A stretch of 64,000 nt of DNA from an uncultured Bacilli bacterium (GCA_947631515.1 CANRLP010000001.1:223-64222), one strand, 5' to 3'; positions 11,458-55,650 are shown, numbered from the stretch's first letter. Translations and numbers: made by a program. Notes: generated by a model not told the origin, from the sequence alone.

Positions 11458-11756
11458 TATTTAAATAACTTCGTAAAGAATCCTTCTTTATTTTGATTTA
11501 ATTCTCCATCTAAATAACTAAAACTATCTATTTTTCCTTTTATTTTTACGTTTCCATCATGAGTATCAAGTTTTAAAATTTCTAAATTATGGCCTTTTAA
11601 TAAAATAACTCCCATATTACTTTCCATTAAAAATTCTTCATTATCAAAACTAGTTATTTTTTTAATTCCCGTTAAAAAGATTTCTCTTCGATCATTAATT
11701 CTTAATTCATGACTGCCTAGCATAATGTTGTCCACTTCTTTATCCATTATTAACAC
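11457..11756 (-). CDS. yabP: sporulation protein YabP
   Basis: LRINDRREIFLTGIKKITSFD...ILLKGHNLEI match the YabP family. Confidence 0.75.
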   Translation of the reverse strand: MLIMDKEVDNIMLGSHELRINDRREIFLTGIKKITSFDNEEFLMESNMGVILLKGHNLEILKLDTHDGNVKIKGKIDSFSYLDGELNQNKEGFFTKLFK

Positions 11757-16899: not shown

Positions 16900-17185
16900 C
16901 CTCTTTTCTATTTACCATTATTTTTATTTAATTGCATTACAAACATAGTTCCCATTCTAAAAAATAAAAAAAATCATAAACTAAGGGCGAAAAAACCGCG
17001 GTACCACCTTAATTCATGATTTTATCATGCACTTTAAATTCGTAACGAGAATAACTCGATTTAACTCCAGAACCATCTTCATATTTCATAATCTACTTGT
17101 TTTCATCAACCACAAGCTTTCTATAAGATTATTAAAATATTACTCTTTCTTTCTCCGTTAATTATTTGTATAGTAACACAAAAAA
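16900..17185 (-). promoter_or_regulatory. T-box riboswitch leader of metG
   Basis: Minus-strand AATTAAGGTGGTACCGCGG (revcomp of 16996-17013) matches the T-box consensus AATTAGGGTGGTACCGCG. ~300-nt leader with AGAGA-like and AUG-containing Stem I candidates, and a T-rich tract after the motif. Confidence 0.8.
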
Positions 17186-27151: not shown

Positions 27152-27159
27152 CACCATAA

Positions 27160-27250
27160 AAAAAGTGCACACGAATAGGGATTGATATGGCTGCTGTCTT
27201 CCAACTCTGACCAGATTACAATATATCCGTTGCACTTTGTAATGATAACA
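27160..27250 (-). ncRNA. ffs: signal recognition particle RNA (small 4.5S type)
   Basis: Minus-strand CUGGUCAGAGUUGGAAGACAGCAGCCA matches SRP domain IV (CAGGUCAGGUCCGGAAGGAAGCAGCC). Closing helix AAAGUGCA/UGCACUUU. Position between gyrA and tadA-dnaX, as scr is in Bacillus. Confidence 0.7.
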
Positions 27251-38597: not shown

Positions 38598-39953
38598 ATG
38601 AACGATAATGATACTATTGTTGCTATTTCTTCAGCTATGGGAAAAGGAGCAATTTCTATTATTCGATTAAGTGGAGAAAATTCAATTTCTATAGTTAATA
38701 AAATATTTAAAGGCAAAGATTTAAGTAAAGTACAATCTCATACTATTCATTATGGTTTTATAGTTGATGAAGAAAAAGAAATAGATGAAGTTCTTGTATC
38801 TGTAATGCTAGCTCCCAAAACTTATACTACAGAAGATATTGTGGAAATTAATTGTCATGGTGGTATATCTACAACTAATAAAGTTTTAGAATTAGTTATT
38901 AAAAATGGTGCACGTCTGGCTGAACCAGGGGAATTTACTAAAAGGGCATTTTTAAATGGGCGAATTAATTTAGTAGAGGCTGAAGCGGTTGGTGATTTAA
39001 TTGCTGCCAAAAGTGAAAAACAAAGAGCTGTAGCAATTAATGGGGTAAATGGTCGTTTAACTAAATTAATATCCAAGCAAAGAACAATTTTATTAGATTT
39101 ATTAGCTAATATTGCTGTTAATATTGATTATCCTGAATATGATGATGCTCTTGTTGTAACTGAAGAATATTTAAAAGAAAAATTGACAAATATTAAATTA
39201 GATTTAGAAATTTTATTAGAAAATGCGAAAATTGGTAAAATTATTAAATCAGGTATAGATATAGCTATAGTAGGAAGACCAAATGTTGGTAAAAGTAGTT
39301 TATTAAATGCTTTTTTAAATGAAGATAAAGCAATAGTTACCGATATATCAGGTACAACAAGAGATATAATAGAAGCAACAACTAACTTAAACGGAATTGA
39401 AATTAACTTAATAGATACCGCGGGAATAAGAAAAACAGATGATTTAGTAGAAAAAATAGGTGTTGATAAAAGTAAAAAAATAATAGATACTGCTGATTTA
39501 ATTATTTTAGTATTAAATAATAATGAGTTATTAACTAAAGAAGATGAAGAATTATTACAAAAAGTTTCCAAAAAACCTCATATTATTTTTGTTAATAAAA
39601 ATGATTTAGCAAAAAAATTAGAATTACCAAAAAATATAAAAAGTATCATGGGAAATACTCAAGAGTTAAATGGTTTAGAAGCTTTAAAAAAAGAAATTAT
39701 TACTATGTATAATTTAGATAAAATAGATGAAAAAGATAGTACTTACTTATCTAATATTCGTCAAATAAATTTAGTAAAAGAAGCTCTAGAAGAAATAAAT
39801 ATTGCTTTAACTGATCTTTCAAACCATATTCCTATTGATATGTTAGAAATTCATATTCGTTCTTCTTGGGAAAAATTAGGTATTTTAATTGGAGAAAATT
39901 ATGAAGATGAATTAATAGATAAATTATTTAAAAATTTTTGTTTAGGAAAGTAG
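38598..39953 (+). CDS. mnmE: tRNA modification GTPase MnmE
   Basis: GRPNVGKSSLLN, DTAG, C-terminal CLGK. Start at ATG 38598 after AAAGGAAG RBS. The ORF-track start at 38514 runs through the promoter. Confidence 0.93.
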   Translation: MNDNDTIVAISSAMGKGAISIIRLSGENSISIVNKIFKGKDLSKVQSHTIHYGFIVDEEKEIDEVLVSVMLAPKTYTTEDIVEINCHGGISTTNKVLELVIKNGARLAEPGEFTKRAFLNGRINLVEAEAVGDLIAAKSEKQRAVAINGVNGRLTKLISKQRTILLDLLANIAVNIDYPEYDDALVVTEEYLKEKLTNIKLDLEILLENAKIGKIIKSGIDIAIVGRPNVGKSSLLNAFLNEDKAIVTDISGTTRDIIEATTNLNGIEINLIDTAGIRKTDDLVEKIGVDKSKKIIDTADLIILVLNNNELLTKEDEELLQKVSKKPHIIFVNKNDLAKKLELPKNIKSIMGNTQELNGLEALKKEIITMYNLDKIDEKDSTYLSNIRQINLVKEALEEINIALTDLSNHIPIDMLEIHIRSSWEKLGILIGENYEDELIDKLFKNFCLGK

Positions 39954-39961
39954 ATGAAAAT

Positions 39962-41827
39962 ATGAAATATGACATTATAGTTGTTGGTGGTGGCCATGCT
40001 GGTTGTGAAGCTTCTCACATCGCCGGATTTATGGGTAAAAAAACTTTACTTATTACCATGAATAAACAAAATATCGCTGATATGCCTTGTAATCCTTCAA
40101 TTGGAGGAACAGCCAAAGGAATTATAGTTCGAGATATTGATGCCTTAGGGGGATTAATGGGTAAAATAGCTGATAAGTCTCACTTTCAAATGAAAATGTT
40201 AAATAGTAAAAAAGGTCCAGCAGTTCAATCTCTTCGTTGTCAAGCTGATAAAAAATTATATCCTCGCAATATGTTAGCAGCTTTAGAAGAAACATCTAAT
40301 TTAGAAATTATGGAAGGTCTTGTAGAAGATATAATTGTCAAAAATAATAAAATAGAAGGAATAATTTTAAATAATAAAGAAAAAATCTTTTGTGATGCCT
40401 TAATTTTAACCACAGGAACTTATTTAAAAAGTAATATTTTAAGGGGTGCTAAAAACACCAAAGGAGGACCTCATGGTGAGGGAAGAAGTAATTTTTTAAG
40501 TGATAATTTAAGAAAGTTAGGATTTACAATTCAAAGATTAAAAACTGGTACTCCTCCTCGAATAAAAAAAGATTCAATAGATTTTTCAAAATGTCAAGAA
40601 GAGTTAGGTGACCATAAATATTATACATTTTCTCATGATGATGAACCATTTTACGATATTGATAAACAAGAAAAATGTTATTTGGTTTATACTAATGCTA
40701 AAACTCATGAAATCATTTTAAATAATTTAGATAAATCTAGTATGTATGGTGGATATGTAACAGGTATAGGACCTAGATATTGTCCTTCTATCGAAGATAA
40801 AATTGTTCGTTTTAAAGATAAGGAAAGACATCAACTATTTTTAGAGCCGGAAAGTAAAGAGTATGATGAATGGTATTTACAAGGTTTTTCGACTAGTATG
40901 CCTGAAGATATTCAAGAACAAATGGTTCATAGTTTAAGTGGCTTAGAAAATGCAGTAATAACTAAATATGCTTATGCTATTGAATATGACGCTATTGATC
41001 CTTTACAAATGAAACCTTCTTTGGAATCGAAAGTTGTGGAAAATATTTTTACGGCTGGTCAAATTAATGGAACAAGTGGTTATGAAGAAGCTGCCGGACA
41101 AGGTTTAATAGCTGGTATAAATGCAGTTTGTAAATTAAATCAAACTCAACCTCTAATTTTAAAAAGAAATGAATCTTATATAGGAGTTTTAATTGATGAT
41201 TTAGTAACAAAAGGTACAAAAGAACCATATCGCATGTTAACATCAAGAGCGGAATATCGTTTATTACTTCGCCATGACAATGCCATTCTACGTTTGCGGC
41301 CCATTGCCCATAAATATCAAACAATAACTGATAAAATGTATCAAAATTATTTAAATTTGGTAACAGATATTGAAAAGTTAAAAAAATTCTTAACTAATAC
41401 CAAATTAGAATTGACTAATGAAAATAAAAAACTATTTATTCAAAATAATTATCAATTACCTCCTAATAAAATAAGTTTTTTAGATTTATTAAAAAGACCT
41501 GAAATTACAATGGAATTTTTAAATCAGTTTACCAATATAGATTTTCCTATAAATGTAAAAGAAGAAGTAGAAATTGAAATTAAATATGAAGGGTATATAA
41601 AAAAGACGGAAAAAGAAATAAGTAAAATGTTAAAATTAGAAGAAAAACAAATTCCTTCTGATATTGATTATCAAAAAGTTAAAAATTTAGCAAGTGAAGC
41701 TCGTCAAAAACTAGAGCAAATTAGACCTTTATCAATTGGCCAAGCAGCTCGAATTAGTGGTGTTAATCCGGCAGATATCTCTATTTTAGCTGTCTATTTA
41801 AAAAGGGAATATAGTAAAGATGAATAA
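39962..41827 (+). CDS. mnmG: tRNA uridine 5-carboxymethylaminomethyl modification enzyme MnmG
   Basis: MKYDIIVVGGGHAGCEA FAD motif. The ORF-track TTG start at 39938 overlaps mnmE. Confidence 0.95.
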   Translation: MKYDIIVVGGGHAGCEASHIAGFMGKKTLLITMNKQNIADMPCNPSIGGTAKGIIVRDIDALGGLMGKIADKSHFQMKMLNSKKGPAVQSLRCQADKKLYPRNMLAALEETSNLEIMEGLVEDIIVKNNKIEGIILNNKEKIFCDALILTTGTYLKSNILRGAKNTKGGPHGEGRSNFLSDNLRKLGFTIQRLKTGTPPRIKKDSIDFSKCQEELGDHKYYTFSHDDEPFYDIDKQEKCYLVYTNAKTHEIILNNLDKSSMYGGYVTGIGPRYCPSIEDKIVRFKDKERHQLFLEPESKEYDEWYLQGFSTSMPEDIQEQMVHSLSGLENAVITKYAYAIEYDAIDPLQMKPSLESKVVENIFTAGQINGTSGYEEAAGQGLIAGINAVCKLNQTQPLILKRNESYIGVLIDDLVTKGTKEPYRMLTSRAEYRLLLRHDNAILRLRPIAHKYQTITDKMYQNYLNLVTDIEKLKKFLTNTKLELTNENKKLFIQNNYQLPPNKISFLDLLKRPEITMEFLNQFTNIDFPINVKEEVEIEIKYEGYIKKTEKEISKMLKLEEKQIPSDIDYQKVKNLASEARQKLEQIRPLSIGQAARISGVNPADISILAVYLKREYSKDE

Positions 41828-42524
41828 ACAAGAATTTCTTAATGCTTTGAAAAAAATGGCAATAAATATCACAGAAGAACAATTAAATAGTTTAGAAACT
41901 TATAAAAATCTTCTTATTGAATATAATAAACATACTAATTTAACAGCTATTAAAGATGAAGAAAGTATATTTTTAAAACATTTTTATGATTCACTTACTA
42001 TTAATAAATATTTAAAAAATAACGAATTAGTTTTAGATATTGGAACAGGTGCTGGATTTCCTGGCATGGTCTTAGCTATTATAAATCCAAATATCAATTT
42101 TGTATTACTTGATTCTAACAATAAAAAGATTAAATTTTTGGAATATTTAAATAATAATTTAAATTTAAAAAATGTAACTTTTGTTAATCAAAGAGCAGAA
42201 GATTATGTGCATGGAAATCGGGAAAAATTTGATATTGTAACTTCTCGAGCAGTAGCTGATTTGCGCATATTATCAGAATTATCACTTCCTGCTTTAAAAA
42301 TAGGAGGTCTTTTTGTAGCGATGAAAGGCGATATTTCTGAGGAATTAAATAATTCTCGGGAGACTATTAATATTTTAGGAGGAAGCATTCAAAAAATTGA
42401 AAAAATCCTATTACCTTTCGAGAATAGTAATAGAACAATAATAACTATCTCACATAATTTCAAAACAAATGAACTTTATCCAAGAAGCTACGACAAAATT
42501 CTTAAAAAGCCATTGAAAAAATAA
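41820..42524 (+). CDS. rsmG: 16S rRNA (guanine527-N7)-methyltransferase
   Basis: DIGTGAGFPG SAM motif. Overlaps mnmG by 8 nt. Confidence 0.93.
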   Translation: MNKQEFLNALKKMAINITEEQLNSLETYKNLLIEYNKHTNLTAIKDEESIFLKHFYDSLTINKYLKNNELVLDIGTGAGFPGMVLAIINPNINFVLLDSNNKKIKFLEYLNNNLNLKNVTFVNQRAEDYVHGNREKFDIVTSRAVADLRILSELSLPALKIGGLFVAMKGDISEELNNSRETINILGGSIQKIEKILLPFENSNRTIITISHNFKTNELYPRSYDKILKKPLKK

Positions 42525-42568
42525 GTAAAGTACGATATATTAATAGTAGGCTAAAGGGGCTGATTAGT

Positions 42569-43924
42569 ATGAATATGGATAAAAATATTCAAGAAATCCC
42601 AATTGAGGATATAATTCCTAATAGATTTCAACCAAGACTTGCATTCAATGAAGAAGGATTGAATGAACTTTCTGATTCCATAAAACAACATGGAATAATT
42701 CAACCCCTTGTTGTACGTAAACTTGGCGATAAATATGAAATAATTGCTGGAGAAAGAAGATATAAAGCTGCTACTCAAGCCGGATTAACTAAAGTGCCTG
42801 CTATAATTTCTGATATAGATGATAATAAAAGCGCCGAGGTAGCTTTAGTAGAAAATATTCAAAGAAGAAATTTAACAGCTATTGAAGAAGCTAAATCATA
42901 TAAAAATTTATTAGACAGAGGTTATTTAACTCAAGAACAATTAGCAGCAAAGATGGGAGTATCTCAATCTTCAATTGCAAATAAATTAAGACTATTAAAC
43001 TTAGCTCCAGAAGTTCAAGATGCCTTATTAAATGAAAAAATATCAGAACGTCATGCTCGAGCATTGTTAAGTTTAGATGATATGGAAGAGCAAAAAAAAT
43101 GGTTACAAAAAATAATTGATGAACGTATGACTGTTCGGCAATTAGATATGGAATTAAAAAAATATAAAGAAGATCCTGATGACGAAGGAAATGATATACC
43201 TTTAGTTAATATAAATCCCGATATAGATAGCATTTTAAATAGTGCAGAAGATATTAATGTTACTAGAGAAGCACACGATGTAGCTAGTATGTTAATGCCG
43301 GACCAAGCCATGAATCAAAATGAAGTTACTGACCAAAATTTGCCACCAGAATCACCTTCAAAAATGCCTAATAAATTCTTTAATTTTTTAGAAGATGAAC
43401 AAGCAAATATGGATATTGGTGAACCTGATGAGATATTTACGAATTTTACTCCAACTTCTTTAGAAGAATCAGAACCAAAAATTCCAGAAAATACTATGCA
43501 ATCTGTAGAAGTATTAGATGATTTAGATAATATCGATACTGATGATAAGCCTGAAGATACGACACCATCAACACCTCAAGAATTACCGGAAGAACCACAA
43601 AATGTTGAGTCTTTTGAAAATATATTTGAATCGACACCAAACTTAGAAAATAATTCTACGGAAATTGTAAACGAACCAATAAGTCAACCAGTAGTAAAAG
43701 AAAATACTTTTGTAGATCCTATGGATAGTGTTGTAAAATTAGAACCAGATTATGAAGAAAAACAAGAAGAATTAGCTGGCACGGATTTAAAAAGTGCAAT
43801 AAATACTATTAGAGAAACAATTGATGCGCTAAATAAAAAAGGATTTACAATAGAAATGGAAGAAGCCGATTTAGAAGATTTGTATCATATAACAATTAAA
43901 ATCGATAAAAACCAAGAAGAGTAA
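42569..43924 (+). CDS. ParB/Noc-like nucleoid partition/occlusion protein with long acidic disordered insert
   Basis: ParB N-terminal box IAGERRYKAA, HTH (QEQLAAKMGVSQSSIANKLRLL). A ~180-aa D/E/P-rich low-complexity region follows, then a short C-terminal domain. No parA downstream. Confidence 0.8.
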   Translation: MNMDKNIQEIPIEDIIPNRFQPRLAFNEEGLNELSDSIKQHGIIQPLVVRKLGDKYEIIAGERRYKAATQAGLTKVPAIISDIDDNKSAEVALVENIQRRNLTAIEEAKSYKNLLDRGYLTQEQLAAKMGVSQSSIANKLRLLNLAPEVQDALLNEKISERHARALLSLDDMEEQKKWLQKIIDERMTVRQLDMELKKYKEDPDDEGNDIPLVNINPDIDSILNSAEDINVTREAHDVASMLMPDQAMNQNEVTDQNLPPESPSKMPNKFFNFLEDEQANMDIGEPDEIFTNFTPTSLEESEPKIPENTMQSVEVLDDLDNIDTDDKPEDTTPSTPQELPEEPQNVESFENIFESTPNLENNSTEIVNEPISQPVVKENTFVDPMDSVVKLEPDYEEKQEELAGTDLKSAINTIRETIDALNKKGFTIEMEEADLEDLYHITIKIDKNQEE

Positions 43925-43996
43925 TCTTCTTTTTTTGGTAATTGAAAATGGCAAGTAAATGAATTATAATTAAATTAATAATAGAGGAGGATTTAT

Positions 43997-45311
43997 ATGA
44001 AGAAAGCAAAAAATAACCTCCCAACCAGACTAACTCTGGGGGGGTATATCAAATAAGAAAGAAGACCTAGAGTTAGAAAAGTTTACTAAGAACAAAAAAA
44101 GAAAATTTATTTTAATAGGATTAATATTAGGAATAAGCGTAACTATTGGTGGAATATTCTTATATAAAAGTTATGCCTATTATGAAAATGAAAAAGAGTA
44201 TAACGTAATAAAAGGAATAATACCCGATTTTTCGTATGATGTGAAGTTTGCCATAACCGTGGATGATGAAACAAAAGAATCAATCCCAACAGAGCCAAAA
44301 GATGCTAACAAATCAAATTATTATAAAGTAACGGCTACTTGTGATAATGGTATAAAAGCAGAATGGGATTATAATGCCTGGAACTTAAAAGTAGAAGATA
44401 TTCAAAAAGGAACAAAATGTAAATTAGCATTTAATAGTACCTTAACCGAAGCAGATTACAAAAATTACATTGACGCAGGAGTTGCATATAGAAGAAATAC
44501 ATATAGAGGCAAAGATATTACCAGTAAATTAAAAGATGGTAGTTTATTCACAGAAATAGAGAGTGGTCATTTCGACGATATATTTGTTGGAGATTACATA
44601 ACAAGTTCAAGTGGCCAAAAAGATTTAAGTAACAAAACAGTAGTATGGTTAATAGCTGATCTAGATAATTATTTATATACTGGAGACGGAGGTATTGTGT
44701 TAAATAAGCATCATGCGACAATAATACCAGCAATTCCTTTAATGAAAGCTTCAATGAATTCCACGAATACAACTGTAGGAGGATATGCCGGAAGTGAAAT
44801 GGTAGGGTATGAAGTAGACGAAAATGGAAAAGCTACCCAAGAGAAAAAAGAAGAAGGAGGAACATTAGATACAGTATTAAGTAAATATATAGAGCCTGAT
44901 TTTGGAGCTAGTAATCCTAGTGGTGATAAACAAAATCATATAATAGAATATCGAAATATAATAACTGTTCAAGTGGATAAAACAAGAACAAATCGATTTG
45001 GACTTACCGATGGTACAAGCTCTAATTTTGAATGGTATAATAGAAAATTAGATTTCATGAGTGAAATGAATGTGTATGGAGGAATCATTTGGTCATCATC
45101 AGGCAGAGATATCGGCATAGACAATATGCAATATGCCATATTTCAACTAAAGCCAGGTTTTAGAGATTCTTACGGAACTTATAGATTTCATTACTGGTTA
45201 AAAGATGTAGCCAAAATGAATAATTTTGCGTATTCCGACGCCTATGGTGTGTCGGGCGTCTACGGTGCGAATGGCCTTATTGGAGTCCGCCCCAGATTCT
45301 TAATCGGTTAA
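43997..45311 (+). CDS. hypothetical membrane-anchored (type II) secreted protein; reading frame interrupted at an A7 homopolymer (44093-44099)
   Basis: ATG 43997 with GAGGAGG RBS encodes MKKAKNNLPTRLTLGGISNKKEDLELEKFTKNKK in frame 2. The frame-0 ORF opens at 44076, encodes TM helix FILIGLILGISVTIGGIFLY, and continues 44241-45311. Deleting one A in the A7 tract fuses the two. No in-frame ATG exists for the downstream part. Confidence 0.55.
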
Positions 45312-45427
45312 CATTTTCTTTTTGAGCAAATGTTTTTTTTAGTTGTTAAACATTGCTATTTTAATAAAAATAACTTTTTTATAAAACTTAAGCGTGTTAT
45401 AATTAGAATAATGGAAGAGGGTTAAAC

Positions 45428-46963
45428 ATGACTAAGTATGATGCTATATTTATTGGGGCCAATAATAGTAATTTAATAGCGGCATTAAGACTAGCTAAAA
45501 ATGGCTATAAAGTATTAATGTTAGAAAAGAATCATATTCCTGGTGGATGTTCTACTAGTTTTATTAGAGGACGTTTTGAATTTGATGCTTCTTTACAAGA
45601 ATTATATGAATATGGATCAACAGAGGAACCAGGTTTATTATATAAATTATTTCAAAGTTTGGATTTAAATGATCAGATACGTTTTGCAGATATCCCTAAT
45701 GCTTTTCATGTTTATGTTAGTTCTAATCATGAAAATTATAAATTGCCTTTTGGGCTACGTAATTTTATTGATAAGATGGAAGAATATGTAAGTGATAGTA
45801 GAGAGTCTTTAGAAAAGTTCTTTCAATTAGGTTTAGAGTGCCGAAATGCTTTAAAATATATTGGTAAACATAAAGCAAATACTCGTTACGAAGTTTTATT
45901 GAGTGATTATCCACATTTTATGAAAATAGCAAATTTATCAGTTAGTACAGTTTTGAATGCTATAAATATGCCTCGTAAAGCTCAAGAAATATTAGCTGCC
46001 AATTGGAGTTATTTTGGCAGTCCGATTGATACTTTATCTTTTGTCCAATTTTCTTCCACTTTTTATTCATACATTGCTAGGGGAACGAAGATACCTCGTA
46101 AAACTAGTTTTGAGATTAGTTTAGTTTTAGCTGAAAATATAGTTGATAATGGTGGATATATTAAGTACTTATCAACAGTTGAAGAAATTTTATTTGAAAA
46201 TGACAAAGTAAGTGGAGTTAAGCTTAGTAATGGGGATATTTATGAAGCACCATATATTATTTGTGGCGTATCTCCTAATGAAGTTTATGGCAAAATGATA
46301 CCATCTAAATATATTCCTAAAAATGCTCTTAAACTTACTAATTCACGGGTTTTAGGAGGTAGAGGTTTTGCTATTTATTTAGGTTTAAATCAAAGTGCTA
46401 AAGAAATAGGATTGAATGATTATTCTTATATAATTACTAATACTTTGGATAGTCGTAAAGAATATGAAAAAATGGGAACAACGAATGTAGAACATTTTAG
46501 AGTATCAGTTATCAACAATGCAAATATTGCAGCATCTCCTAAAAATACATGTATTATGCAATTTTCTACTTTTTTTACTAATGATTGTTTTATGAAACTA
46601 GCTAATCCAAGTAATTATTATGAATTAAAAGAACAAATTGCCAATCGTTTAATTACTCTTTTTGAAGATATGACAGGAATTATTATTAAACCTTTTATTG
46701 AAGAAATTGAGATTTCTTCTCCAGAGACTTTTGCCAGGTATACTAATCAACCTGAAGGGACAATTTATGGCTTTAAAGCAACAGGTTTAGATAATCTTTT
46801 ACCACGAATGATTAATGAAGAAAATGAACAATTTATTGATAATTTGAAATTTAATAGTGGTTTTGGCACTTATTTAAGTAGTTATGCAACGACATATTTG
46901 ACGGGAAATGAATTAGCCATGAATATCCTAGCTAGTAGAGAAGGGGTGGATGCAAATGAATAA
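45428..46963 (+). CDS. FAD-dependent oxidoreductase, phytoene-desaturase (CrtI)/amine-oxidase family
   Basis: N-terminal dinucleotide-binding DAIFIGANNSNLIAALRLAKNGYKVLMLEKNHIPGG. ~510 aa, typical for the CrtI family. Confidence 0.65.
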   Translation: MTKYDAIFIGANNSNLIAALRLAKNGYKVLMLEKNHIPGGCSTSFIRGRFEFDASLQELYEYGSTEEPGLLYKLFQSLDLNDQIRFADIPNAFHVYVSSNHENYKLPFGLRNFIDKMEEYVSDSRESLEKFFQLGLECRNALKYIGKHKANTRYEVLLSDYPHFMKIANLSVSTVLNAINMPRKAQEILAANWSYFGSPIDTLSFVQFSSTFYSYIARGTKIPRKTSFEISLVLAENIVDNGGYIKYLSTVEEILFENDKVSGVKLSNGDIYEAPYIICGVSPNEVYGKMIPSKYIPKNALKLTNSRVLGGRGFAIYLGLNQSAKEIGLNDYSYIITNTLDSRKEYEKMGTTNVEHFRVSVINNANIAASPKNTCIMQFSTFFTNDCFMKLANPSNYYELKEQIANRLITLFEDMTGIIIKPFIEEIEISSPETFARYTNQPEGTIYGFKATGLDNLLPRMINEENEQFIDNLKFNSGFGTYLSSYATTYLTGNELAMNILASREGVDANE

Positions 46964-48116
46964 AATTGAATTAAAAGGTTTAAATAATGATAAAAATTTT
47001 CAAAATATGGGCAAAGAAAGAGAAAAAATTATTCATAAGTCTTCTTCTAAACCAATTGTAACAGAATATAAAGCTAATGCTTTAGCTAAGAAATTACATC
47101 CAGAAGAGCAATATGTTAAAGTAGAAAAAATTATTAAAGAGAATGATGATGTTAAAACGTTTGTTTTAGTACCAGATAAAAGTGAAAATACTAATTCCTT
47201 AGCTTATTTTCAAGCTGGACAATACATAACTATTATCGTTGAAATTGATGGAGGAATTTATAGAAGACCTTATACTTTAAGTTGTAGTCCTAAACATGCC
47301 TTAAATCACGAATATATGATTACAATTAAACGGGTTAGAGGGGGAATAATTTCTAATTATTTTTTAGACGAAGTGCAAGAAGGTTTTTCTTTTAAAATTT
47401 CTGCTCCTTTAGGAAATTTTTGCTATTCAACAATTAGAGATTGTAAACATGTATTAGCACTAGCTAGTGGAAGAGGAATTATCCCTTTTTTATCTATGGC
47501 TGAAGCTATCTATGATGGTAATTTAAAATGTAATTTAACAATTCTTTATAAAGCTAAGACTAAAGATGATTTGTTATTTCGTGAAAAATTAGATGATATT
47601 ATTTGTAAAATGGAAAATGTAAATGTAGTGTATGTTTTGAGTGAAGAAGATGACAATGAATTTTTGAGTGGCGACATTGATGAAGATTTAATAAGACAAT
47701 ATTCTACGGAAGAAACATCATATTTTGTTAGTGGTTCTCCAGATTTTTATTCTCATATTAATGAAGTTTTAAAAAATTTGGATATTCCGAAAAAGTTTGT
47801 TCGACATGATTTATTTAAGGGAGAAATTGAGTTAAAGAGTAATGAAGAGTATTTACTTACAGTTATAAGTGATGAAAGAGAATATTCTCTTAAATGTCAT
47901 GGTAAAGAAACATTATTACAAGCCATTGAAAAAAGTGGTATTGATATAAAAAGTGGTTGTCATGTTGGAGTTTGTGGTTTATGTCGCAGTAAGTTAATTA
48001 GTGGGAAAGTAAAAACTATTGACGAAAATTTGAGAGCTATTGATAAATCATATAATTATATTCATCCATGTATAACTTATCCGGAAAGTGATGTAATATT
48101 AAAATTACCTAATTAA
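46950..48116 (+). CDS. FNR-type FAD/NAD(P)-binding reductase with C-terminal plant-type 2Fe-2S ferredoxin domain
   Basis: RPYTLS FAD-binding motif, GIIPFLSM NAD motif, C-terminal CHVGVCGLC...C cluster. Overlaps the upstream gene by 14 nt. Confidence 0.65.
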   Translation: MQMNKIELKGLNNDKNFQNMGKEREKIIHKSSSKPIVTEYKANALAKKLHPEEQYVKVEKIIKENDDVKTFVLVPDKSENTNSLAYFQAGQYITIIVEIDGGIYRRPYTLSCSPKHALNHEYMITIKRVRGGIISNYFLDEVQEGFSFKISAPLGNFCYSTIRDCKHVLALASGRGIIPFLSMAEAIYDGNLKCNLTILYKAKTKDDLLFREKLDDIICKMENVNVVYVLSEEDDNEFLSGDIDEDLIRQYSTEETSYFVSGSPDFYSHINEVLKNLDIPKKFVRHDLFKGEIELKSNEEYLLTVISDEREYSLKCHGKETLLQAIEKSGIDIKSGCHVGVCGLCRSKLISGKVKTIDENLRAIDKSYNYIHPCITYPESDVILKLPN

Positions 48117-54968: not shown

Positions 54969-55301
54969 ATGTATAGTGAAAAAGTTACTTTAACCAAAGA
55001 AGATATCTTGAATAAAGATTTTAAGGTTGATGCAAGAGGATATCGTCCTCAAGAAGTAGATGATTTTTTAGATACAATTATTGATGATTATACAGCTTAT
55101 ACTACCATTATTAGAAGACAGGAAAATGAAATCCGGGCTTTAACAGAAGATAATATTAAATTAAAACAAGAATATCATAAACTTCGGAGTCGTTTAGAAG
55201 CGGCAGAAGATGCTTCTTCTAATTCAAGTCCTGTTAATAATGTTGATTTGTTAAGAAGAATTAGTCAACTTGAAAAAATTGTATTTGGAAAAAATGAATA
55301 A
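54969..55301 (+). CDS. gpsB: cell-cycle protein GpsB (DivIVA-domain)
   Basis: LTKEDILNKDFKVDARGYRPQEVDDFLD matches the GpsB N-terminus. Followed by rnpB, as in B. subtilis. Confidence 0.88.
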   Translation: MYSEKVTLTKEDILNKDFKVDARGYRPQEVDDFLDTIIDDYTAYTTIIRRQENEIRALTEDNIKLKQEYHKLRSRLEAAEDASSNSSPVNNVDLLRRISQLEKIVFGKNE

Positions 55302-55650
55302 TTTGTAGGCAAATGCTGCATTTTTAAAAAAATGTAGAGGAAAGTCCATGCTCACACAGTCTGTGATGATTGTAGTGTTCGTGCTTAGGGAAAAAATAAC
55401 CTAAGGCAAAAAATTTTTTTGACGGCGGAAAATTTACCTTAAATGGTAATAGTATCCATAAAGTGCCAAAGAGACGAGCTTGCTTGGAAACGAGCAAGGA
55501 TGGAACGTGGTAAACCCCGCGAGTGAGAAACCCAAAATTTGGTAGGGGAGTTTTTGCTGATAAGAAGAATGAAGCAAAAAAGAGTAATCTAGATAAATAT
55601 TTGCCACACGAATTTTTCGTGTACAGAACATGGCTTATTCAGGTTATTTA
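55300..55650 (+). ncRNA. rnpB: RNase P RNA, type B
   Basis: GAGGAAAGTCCATGCTCACAC...GTGTTCGTGC and AGTGCCA..GACGA....GGAACG.GGTAAACCCC.CGAG.GAGAAACCCAAA.TTGGTAGGGGA plus ACAGAACATGGCTTA match the B. subtilis M1 RNA. T-run at 55650-55659. Confidence 0.88.

Follow-up and report, generated by a model that had tools for sequence, protein, structure and literature searches.

Why should the last codons of a gene be rich in guanine and cytosine (GC) when the chromosome that carries it is not? The question is raised by a predicted surface-protein gene in a 64,000-nt stretch of DNA from an uncultured Bacilli bacterium (GCA_947631515.1, CANRLP010000001.1:223-64222; hereafter the window), in which a sharp rise in GC coincides with the 3' end of the coding sequence at about position 45,311. 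We propose that a diversity-generating retroelement (DGR) very probably accounts for it: the gene would be a DGR target and the segment its variable region (VR). The family to which the gene belongs consists of DGR targets, and their VR architecture and composition recur in the window's segment.

An adenine-poor GC spike closes the gene

The whole window is 27.0% GC, and its 81-nt windows average 0.270 (standard deviation, SD, 0.063). GC reaches 0.531 over 45231-45311 and 0.568 over 45228-45308, which at about +4.7 SD is the highest 81-nt value of the 64 kb, and it rises to 0.62 in the best sub-segment, 45228-45295. The second-highest 81-nt window (0.519) lies within the RNase P RNA gene. Sliding-window analysis thus bears out the spike described in a first-pass annotation of this DNA, which had also correctly read the open reading frame (ORF) and its C-terminal peptide, ...FAYSDAYGVSGVYGANGLIGVRPRFLIG*. 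The same annotation held that nine GC-rich codons of the tail (GCC, GTG, TCG, GGC, GTC, TAC, GCG, CGC and CCC) are scarce elsewhere, and this is the case: they account for 12 of 22 tail codons versus 3.0% of the 17,820 codons in the long ORFs of the window (binomial P = 3e-13).

The anomaly extends to synonymous choice. For the same amino acids and the codon usage of the window, 2.9 G/C-ending and 6.3 A-ending codons would be expected in the tail, versus 14 of 22 and 1 observed, and GC at third codon positions is 0.61 in the tail versus 0.20 in the gene body. Adenine makes up 13% of the VR and 41% of the gene body; by codon position its frequency in the VR is 0.13, 0.22 and 0.09, versus about 0.40 in the body. 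Because the codon choice goes well beyond what the amino acids call for, the encoded protein does not explain the anomaly.

We therefore give almost no credence to the idea that protein-level constraint alone, or a structured RNA inside the coding sequence, accounts for the spike. Codons for glycine, alanine, valine, arginine and proline must indeed be rich in GC at positions one and two, and the terminal GVRPRFLI is invariant, but the excess of G/C-ending codons goes beyond this requirement and the GC-rich part of the gene is its hypervariable part (see below). As for the structured RNA that had been suggested, the segment has no match at Rfam gathering level, and its folding is indistinguishable from that of shuffled controls (z 0.02 and -0.42 on the two strands). 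A permissive local Rfam scan returned one sub-threshold chance match, which is not credible.

The spike encodes the hypervariable patch of a protein family

The window protein has 398 homologues, some of which carry a precomputed PF19789/DUF6273 flag. In an alignment of 34 of them the body is conserved, and hypervariability is found at residues about 331-348, exactly under the GC spike. Abutting this patch, the C-terminal G-V-R-P-R-F-L-I is invariant or nearly so, with G348, R350 and P351 invariant in the alignment and V349 conserved in at least 90% of sequences. Pairwise comparison of the six closest proteins gives an identity of 0.67 for the body, 0.28 for the VR and 1.00 for VRPRFLI; over the whole protein, conservation is lowest in the 17-residue window that starts at residue 331 (identity 0.22). 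Hypervariability confined to the 3' end and held between conserved flanks is, at the level of sequence, the pattern of a DGR target.

Species-representative genomes yielded 133 relatives, of which almost all belong to a few gut metagenome-assembled genomes (MAGs) labeled "uncultured Bacilli/Tenericutes", each with many paralogues. GC-rich tails are present family-wide, at 0.33-0.69 GC in loci of 0.25-0.32 GC. The first-pass annotation had reasoned that the same GC-rich tail in equally AT-rich relatives, within a conserved protein domain, would indicate protein-level constraint only. The tail is indeed present in such relatives, but the protein is hypervariable there, not conserved, which excludes that constraint as the sole cause.

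Retroelement cassettes adjoin family members in relatives

Loci of relatives are designated by L-numbers, L083 being a second sample of the L082-type locus. In L032, L024, L081 and L082, a cassette stands beside a family member and comprises the target, a GC hairpin, an ORF resembling the accessory protein Avd, a template repeat (TR) and a reverse transcriptase (RT). An adenine-tolerant scan located the L032 TR 1.3 kb downstream of the family member. The order in this locus is target, GC hairpin right after the stop codon (minimum free energy, MFE, -23.2; z -4.25), 187-aa Avd-like ORF, three TR-plus-spacer units and 395-aa RT. The Avd-like ORF matches PHROG 3206, "Avd protein of DGR" (E 1.9e-7; another match has E 7.5e-6), and the RT scores 57.6 bits against Pfam RVT_1 (cut-off 29.6) and 3e-67 against a PHROG RT. 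The motif of this RT clade reads IGSQISQ..YMDD, which escapes a regular expression of the form SQ...N / YxDD. The L081 cassette is hosted by a 47% GC Firmicute and that of L082/L083, which has two TR units, by a 29% GC genome. The cassettes lie among chromosomal housekeeping genes (rpsB/tsf and rpsP/der/lexA neighbours), and neither the cassette spacer nor the target family was found in IMG/VR.

Differences between TR and VR fall at template adenines in 48 of 50 cases when the four loci are pooled, distributed as follows:

L032: 10 of 12 differences at template A (Fisher p 3.6e-6)
L024: 2 of 2 (Fisher p 0.02)
L081: 20 of 20 (Fisher p 4e-17)
L082: 16 of 16 (Fisher p 2e-11)

In these four loci TR and VR are identical through GGTGT(T/C)CG(C/T)CC(C) and diverge directly after it. 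The VRs of L082 and L083 are identical, a two-sample comparison of one locus that is uninformative on activity.

Most described DGRs have a single TR. Here, template units are found in tandem, three in L032 (11672-12510) and two in L082 (9490-10000), each with its own TR variant of differing length and codons and the same conserved spacer of about 125 nt. These tandem units may serve VR classes of different length. In L024 the TR (11640-11740) is nearly identical to the VR, with few adenines and no runs of AAY codons (Y, pyrimidine), as if the VR had been copied back; such a template would have little diversifying capacity. Truncated or degenerate cassettes were also seen (L029, L036, L057, L039, L051 and L062). 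Among these, the remnants beside paralogues in L039 (5-347), L062 (6453-6740) and L051 (8543-9339) are pieces of Avd joined to a C-terminal piece of RT or to the bare gene end "...ARPRFLIN*", a hint that cassettes were duplicated, and decayed, more than once in a single genome.

These cassettes bear on the origins first proposed for the spike, namely a cassette recombined from a higher-GC donor, an embedded integration site or structured RNA, or nucleotide-level constraint. The general intuition was sound, as the composition would be imposed at the nucleotide level by recombination-like retrohoming; the specific suggestions found no support. We consider it extremely unlikely that the 3' segment was acquired once by horizontal transfer from a higher-GC donor, or that it marks an attachment (att) site at the edge of an accessory island. 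Its composition is locally foreign and a related cassette does exist in the 47% GC Firmicute, but the same GC-rich tail recurs in hundreds of homologues from genomes of 25-32% GC. The att-site proposal also fails on repeats, since no direct or inverted copy of the segment was recovered in the window by repeat search, blastn-short or adenine-tolerant scan, and no tRNA or tmRNA fragment was found. A phage or plasmid cassette is likewise disfavored, with no DNA match in phage genomes and the family missing from IMG/VR. Finally, the coincidence with the left edge of an accessory redox gene pair, on which the first-pass annotation had remarked, has no support as a link: gene neighborhoods are not kept in relatives, where cassette-adjacent copies precede Avd, TR and RT and not redox genes.

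Paralogues within one genome share an adenine-free scaffold

Within a single MAG, paralogue tails share an identical nucleotide scaffold that includes synonymous sites; their differences fall at positions one and two of NNY codons (N, any base) that recur at regular intervals. The CANPZX MAG carries 27 VRs of standard architecture, all distinct, of which 20 fit a common scaffold with at most three mismatches. None of 38 conserved positions in these VRs is an adenine, versus 42 of 129 in the adjacent body, and the variable columns are distributed over the three codon positions as 11/10/4 in the VR versus 12/6/30 in the body. Judged from these alignments, the pattern is the signature that adenine-specific mutagenesis from an AAY-bearing template would leave.

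The CANPZX scaffold was inferred without any TR and then compared with the L082 TR. The template has an adenine at 20 of 25 variable columns and at 0 of 43 conserved columns (p 6e-13), and 41 of the 43 conserved columns are identical between scaffold and template. Measured against this TR, about 21 of the CANPZX VRs have no more than 4-6 mismatches outside template adenines. Many other paralogues have decayed, AT-richer tails (GC 0.32-0.47, A 0.19-0.28). Tails that are off the scaffold are both AT-richer and A-richer, as composition and the established DGR mechanism would lead one to expect where homing has stopped.

The paralogues form large families in which common flanking scaffolds surround a variable core, as would suit gene conversion, and the tail could in principle be a cassette shuffled among them by homologous recombination without reverse transcription, as in the antigenic variation of mycoplasmas or Borrelia. 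We find this very unlikely here. The concentration of TR/VR mismatches at template adenines (48 of 50) and the absence of adenine from conserved VR positions (0 of 38) speak against it, as do the RT, Avd and TR that adjoin family members. Moreover, the 27 VRs of one genome are all unique and are not mosaics, and the window holds a single copy of the family.

A retrohoming mechanism would account for the GC richness

In the DGR mechanism that we propose for the family, the RT and its Avd-like partner would copy a short TR RNA into cDNA, template adenines would be misread as any base during this synthesis, and the cDNA would take the place of its homologous counterpart, the final 70-95 nt or so of the target gene. 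The segment rewritten in this way would be the ligand-binding face of a C-type-lectin-fold domain in a membrane-anchored protein. Codons of the AAY type cannot mutate to stop codons. Constant positions would have to be encoded without adenine, and a scaffold of A-free codons would result. The TRs are GC-rich islands of about 0.52-0.55 GC (0.53 in L032, in a locus of 0.30, and 0.52 in L082, in a locus of 0.29) with adenines only where variation is wanted. VR GC lies above TR GC, at 0.62 and 0.66 in L032 and L082 versus 0.52-0.53 for the TRs, and the passage from AAY in the TR to NNY in the VR would raise GC further. The VR would stay GC-rich, and would not follow the AT bias of the genome, because it is repeatedly overwritten from a GC-rich TR; GC richness would thus stem from an adenine-poor, GC-rich template combined with A-to-N mutagenesis.

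The window's copy is probably a remote or recently orphaned variable region

The features of the window's gene, all on the plus strand, are as follows:

43942-43970: promoter-like site TTGAAA-17-TATAAT, a consensus match only (11/12), just before the ribosome-binding site and ATG 43997
43997-45311: DGR target gene with an N-terminal membrane anchor, a C-type-lectin-like body and a 3' VR, split by a frameshift as assembled
44038-44044: G7 homopolymer in the 5' coding region, a putative slipped-strand switch, OFF as assembled and ON at G6 or G9
45225-45230: conserved F-A codons TTT GCG, opening the VR architecture
45231-45281: variable VR codons Y S D A Y G V S G V Y G A N G L I; 13 of 14 codons outside the scaffold end in a pyrimidine (NNY)
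45282-45293: GGAGTCCGCCCC, the GC-rich VR 3' end encoding G-V-R-P, resembling an initiation-of-mutagenic-homing site; TR/VR homology stops here in relatives
45294-45311: tail R-F-L-I-G and stop codon; RPRFL is invariant in the 34 aligned sequences and VRPRFLI is 100% conserved in the six closest
45310-45336: AACATTT...AAATGTT, a weak, terminator-like AT-rich hairpin with a T run after it (MFE -4.4, z -0.96)

The window's VR has a 23-codon F-A...G-V-R-P architecture, as do the L081 TR and the CANPZX VR scaffold, and the spacing from the F-A anchor to the R codon of RPRF, 21 codons, is common to relatives and to the TRs of L032, L081 and L082. The 5' limit of template homology is likely at 45225-45230 or slightly upstream, and the AAT AAT at 45219-45224 may be unmutated template codons.

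Several observations weigh against assigning this copy to a DGR. The adenine footprint comes from other lineages, whose housekeeping proteins are 46-50% identical, and not from the window's own; the window copy, taken by itself, shows a footprint in its composition only, with 13% A, an NNY form in 13 of 14 variable codons and 14 of 22 codons G/C-ending versus 2.9 expected, and one variable codon, GTG, is not NNY. No TR, Avd, RT or spacer was detected in the 64-kb window by blastn-short, adenine-tolerant scan, tblastn or spacer probe, nor did the collections searched contain a TR matching the window's VR. The closest TR tested, that of L082, has 19 non-A mismatches to it. The strong GC hairpin that follows cassette-adjacent VRs is missing (weak AT hairpin, z -0.96, versus z -4.25 in L032), the 78-nt tail falls between the "fresh" and "decayed" CANPZX classes (GC 0.54, A 0.17), and the gene is frameshifted as assembled. 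A pattern for the window's VR scaffold or its TR gave nothing in a scan of the viral collection; its sole metagenome match, L080 98-124, is a chance hit in a contig of 64-75% GC.

The window contains only one family member and no TR, Avd or RT. Such a copy would either be served in trans, as a remote target, or have been orphaned recently. Non-phage DGRs are documented to have remote targets at distances of more than 100 kb from the RT (PMC5758913). In CANPZX, most scaffold-matching VRs are themselves remote, with ordinary terminators after the gene and no GC hairpin following the stop codon. We infer that the window copy was written in trans by a DGR elsewhere in the same genome; whether it is served at present or was orphaned recently appears to be a roughly even matter, with a slight lean towards a DGR that is still active.

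An orphaned, or fossil, VR would record past writing by a DGR whose retroelement has since been lost or inactivated, leaving a relic still short of decay to the AT bias of the genome. It falls within the DGR-target reading, and we regard it as a tentative but real possibility. The 64 kb hold no cassette, degenerate cassettes are common in relatives (L039, L051, L062), many paralogues have decayed, AT-richer tails, and the window's own tail is intermediate on the 78-nt measure. The lack of a GC hairpin after the VR and the loss of frame at G7 would also fit a relic. However, the core at 45228-45295 still has 0.62 GC and 13% A in a genome of 27% GC, close to scaffold-matching VRs; at least 20 remote CANPZX copies without the hairpin still fit a common scaffold; and the frameshift falls in a tract that resembles a reversible switch and not decay.

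The target gene encodes a predicted membrane-anchored, lectin-like protein

The first-pass annotation had called this a hypothetical surface-protein gene, and the N-terminal membrane anchor agrees with that name. The gene start needs revision: the listed 356-aa ORF begins at a GTG, and the anchor lies upstream of it in the same frame, which has no start codon. The real start is ATG 43997, with a ribosome-binding site and the promoter-like site upstream, and the gene is frameshifted at G7. At the other end of the gene, the hairpin at 45310-45336 was not called by a simple terminator scan; it is an ordinary terminator-like end, unlike the strong GC hairpin after cassette-adjacent VRs.

The window protein has no Pfam match at E<=1 and no NCBIfam match. 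It is related to DUF6273 (PF19789) without being a scored member, and even the L032 target stays below the gathering threshold of that family (14.9 bits versus a cut-off of 23.5). The predicted fold is that of a C-type lectin, which, like the Ig fold, is one on which DGR targets display their VR. The window protein and its three closest homologues also share an insertion of ~17 residues, VGYEVDENGKATQEKKEEGG, at residues about 189-205 of the 356-aa ORF (around 44805-44860), and a second short insertion, SNPSGDKQ; the rest of the family has neither.

A poly-G tract may switch the gene on and off

The frame opened by ATG 43997 enters the G7 tract and stops at 44054-44056, and the frame of the body is open from 44034. 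Shortening the tract to G6 yields a single ORF of 437 aa, and lengthening it to G9 one of 438 aa. This is the sole G/C run of at least six in the 64 kb. A poly-G tract lies at the equivalent place in 54 of 83 paralogue 5' regions and joins an ATG-led anchor to the body at some tract lengths only, and the same frame logic is reproduced in 38 testable paralogues. The paralogue tracts are mostly G10, with some G9, G8 or G6 (L001-L079; for example L028 9903, L036 9905, and L065 1350 and 2662). A homopolymer placed so as to set the frame is what a phase-variable locus would display, and G7 looks like a slipped-strand phase switch, as far as assembled sequence can tell.

Two reservations concern the assemblies themselves. 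The G7 of the window may be a one-nucleotide homopolymer error and not a phase switch, and the near-uniform G10 in the MAGs may have arisen artificially when reads were trimmed for poly-G or assembled. Contig ends often coincide with the tract, and such breaks probably explain the fragmentation of the MAGs at these genes.

Putting both features together, surface variation in these bacteria could operate in two layers, with dozens of paralogues each turned ON or OFF by its poly-G tract, and with a single DGR cassette on the chromosome, or a small number of them, using tandem TRs to rewrite the VRs in trans. To this model we assign a probability slightly short of even. If it holds, the choice of the expressed paralogue would be combined with the form of its binding face, and the at least 20 VRs on one scaffold in a single MAG would form one of the largest target sets that DGRs serve in trans in any one genome. 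The literature that we searched held no paper coupling DGR targets with homopolymer switches.

Comparison with known systems

Mechanistically, the system matches the DGRs of Bordetella phage BPP-1, Legionella and Treponema, and remote or multiple targets were already known. BPP-1 (Mtd, Avd, TR, bRT) is a phage-borne DGR with a single adjacent target. From established knowledge of that system, the likeness comprises a target with a 3' VR, an Avd-like protein, a TR with a conserved spacer, an RT, adenine-specific changes, a GC-rich VR 3' end and, in cassette-adjacent copies, a hairpin after the VR. Unlike BPP-1, the element of the relatives is chromosomal and absent from IMG/VR, with two or three tandem TR units and many remote targets, and the window copy has no such hairpin.

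The Treponema denticola DGR is cellular and has remote targets of the TvpA family. TvpA has no detectable sequence similarity to the window family. It is a C-lectin lipoprotein of the formylglycine-generating enzyme (FGE) type from a spirochaete, whereas the window family combines an N-terminal anchor with a DUF6273-like C-lectin in AT-rich Bacilli. A survey reported at most seven non-adjacent targets, compared with at least 20 scaffold-matching VRs in the CANPZX MAG. In gut phages, DUF6273 domains are C-lectin-like DGR targets (PMC10743442). Tentaclins and the targets of Faecalibacterium prophages likewise have a DUF6273-like C-lectin variable domain with a C-terminal motif of the G-V-R-P type; they are phage receptor-binding proteins, whereas the window protein is cellular and membrane-anchored, with a family-specific N-terminal half. 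Thiohalocapsa PB-PSB1 has 15 DGR targets at nine loci, including incomplete loci and candidate remote targets in trans (PMC10907252). Those are intracellular STAND-NTPase/conflict-system sensors in a genome of about 8 Mb, whereas here a single surface-anchored, lectin-like family has expanded in small AT-rich genomes. Finally, the poly-G loci of Campylobacter, Neisseria, Helicobacter and Mycoplasma likewise use a G tract in the 5' coding region to set the frame across a surface-protein family; in the present family the tract is known from assemblies alone.

What is new is a cellular, membrane-anchored target family with dozens of copies, its occurrence in a lineage of uncultured Bacilli with small AT-rich genomes, the tandem TR arrays, and the probable coupling to poly-G switches. 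Where a gene in an AT-rich genome closes with a short, adenine-poor GC spike and a tail of the GVRP type, the combination is a usable signature of a DGR target, also if the retroelement is distant or off the contig. It marks the hypothetical protein of the window as a putative programmed-hypervariable, ligand-binding surface protein, probably contacting the host, phages or other cells, in an uncultured gut lineage whose surface biology is almost undescribed. Should the poly-G coupling and the very large number of trans targets both hold, the known range of cellular DGRs would be extended and the fragmentation of assemblies at these genes would be explained.

Neighboring genes and RNAs

Downstream of the target gene, an overlapping pair at 45428-48116 encodes an FAD amine-oxidase/phytoene-desaturase-like protein and an FNR-type FAD/NAD-binding protein with a 2Fe-2S domain; we found no link between this pair and the VR. 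In L017, a homologue of the FAD amine-oxidase/phytoene-desaturase-like gene lies about 9 kb from a paralogue of the target gene. Only three RNAs of the window score above Rfam gathering thresholds, namely the class B RNase P RNA (55301-55641, plus strand), a T-box leader (16980-17164, minus strand) and the small signal recognition particle RNA (27156-27241, minus strand). Together with mnmG, rsmG and parB (39938-43924), these indicate a Bacilli-type chromosome near the replication origin.

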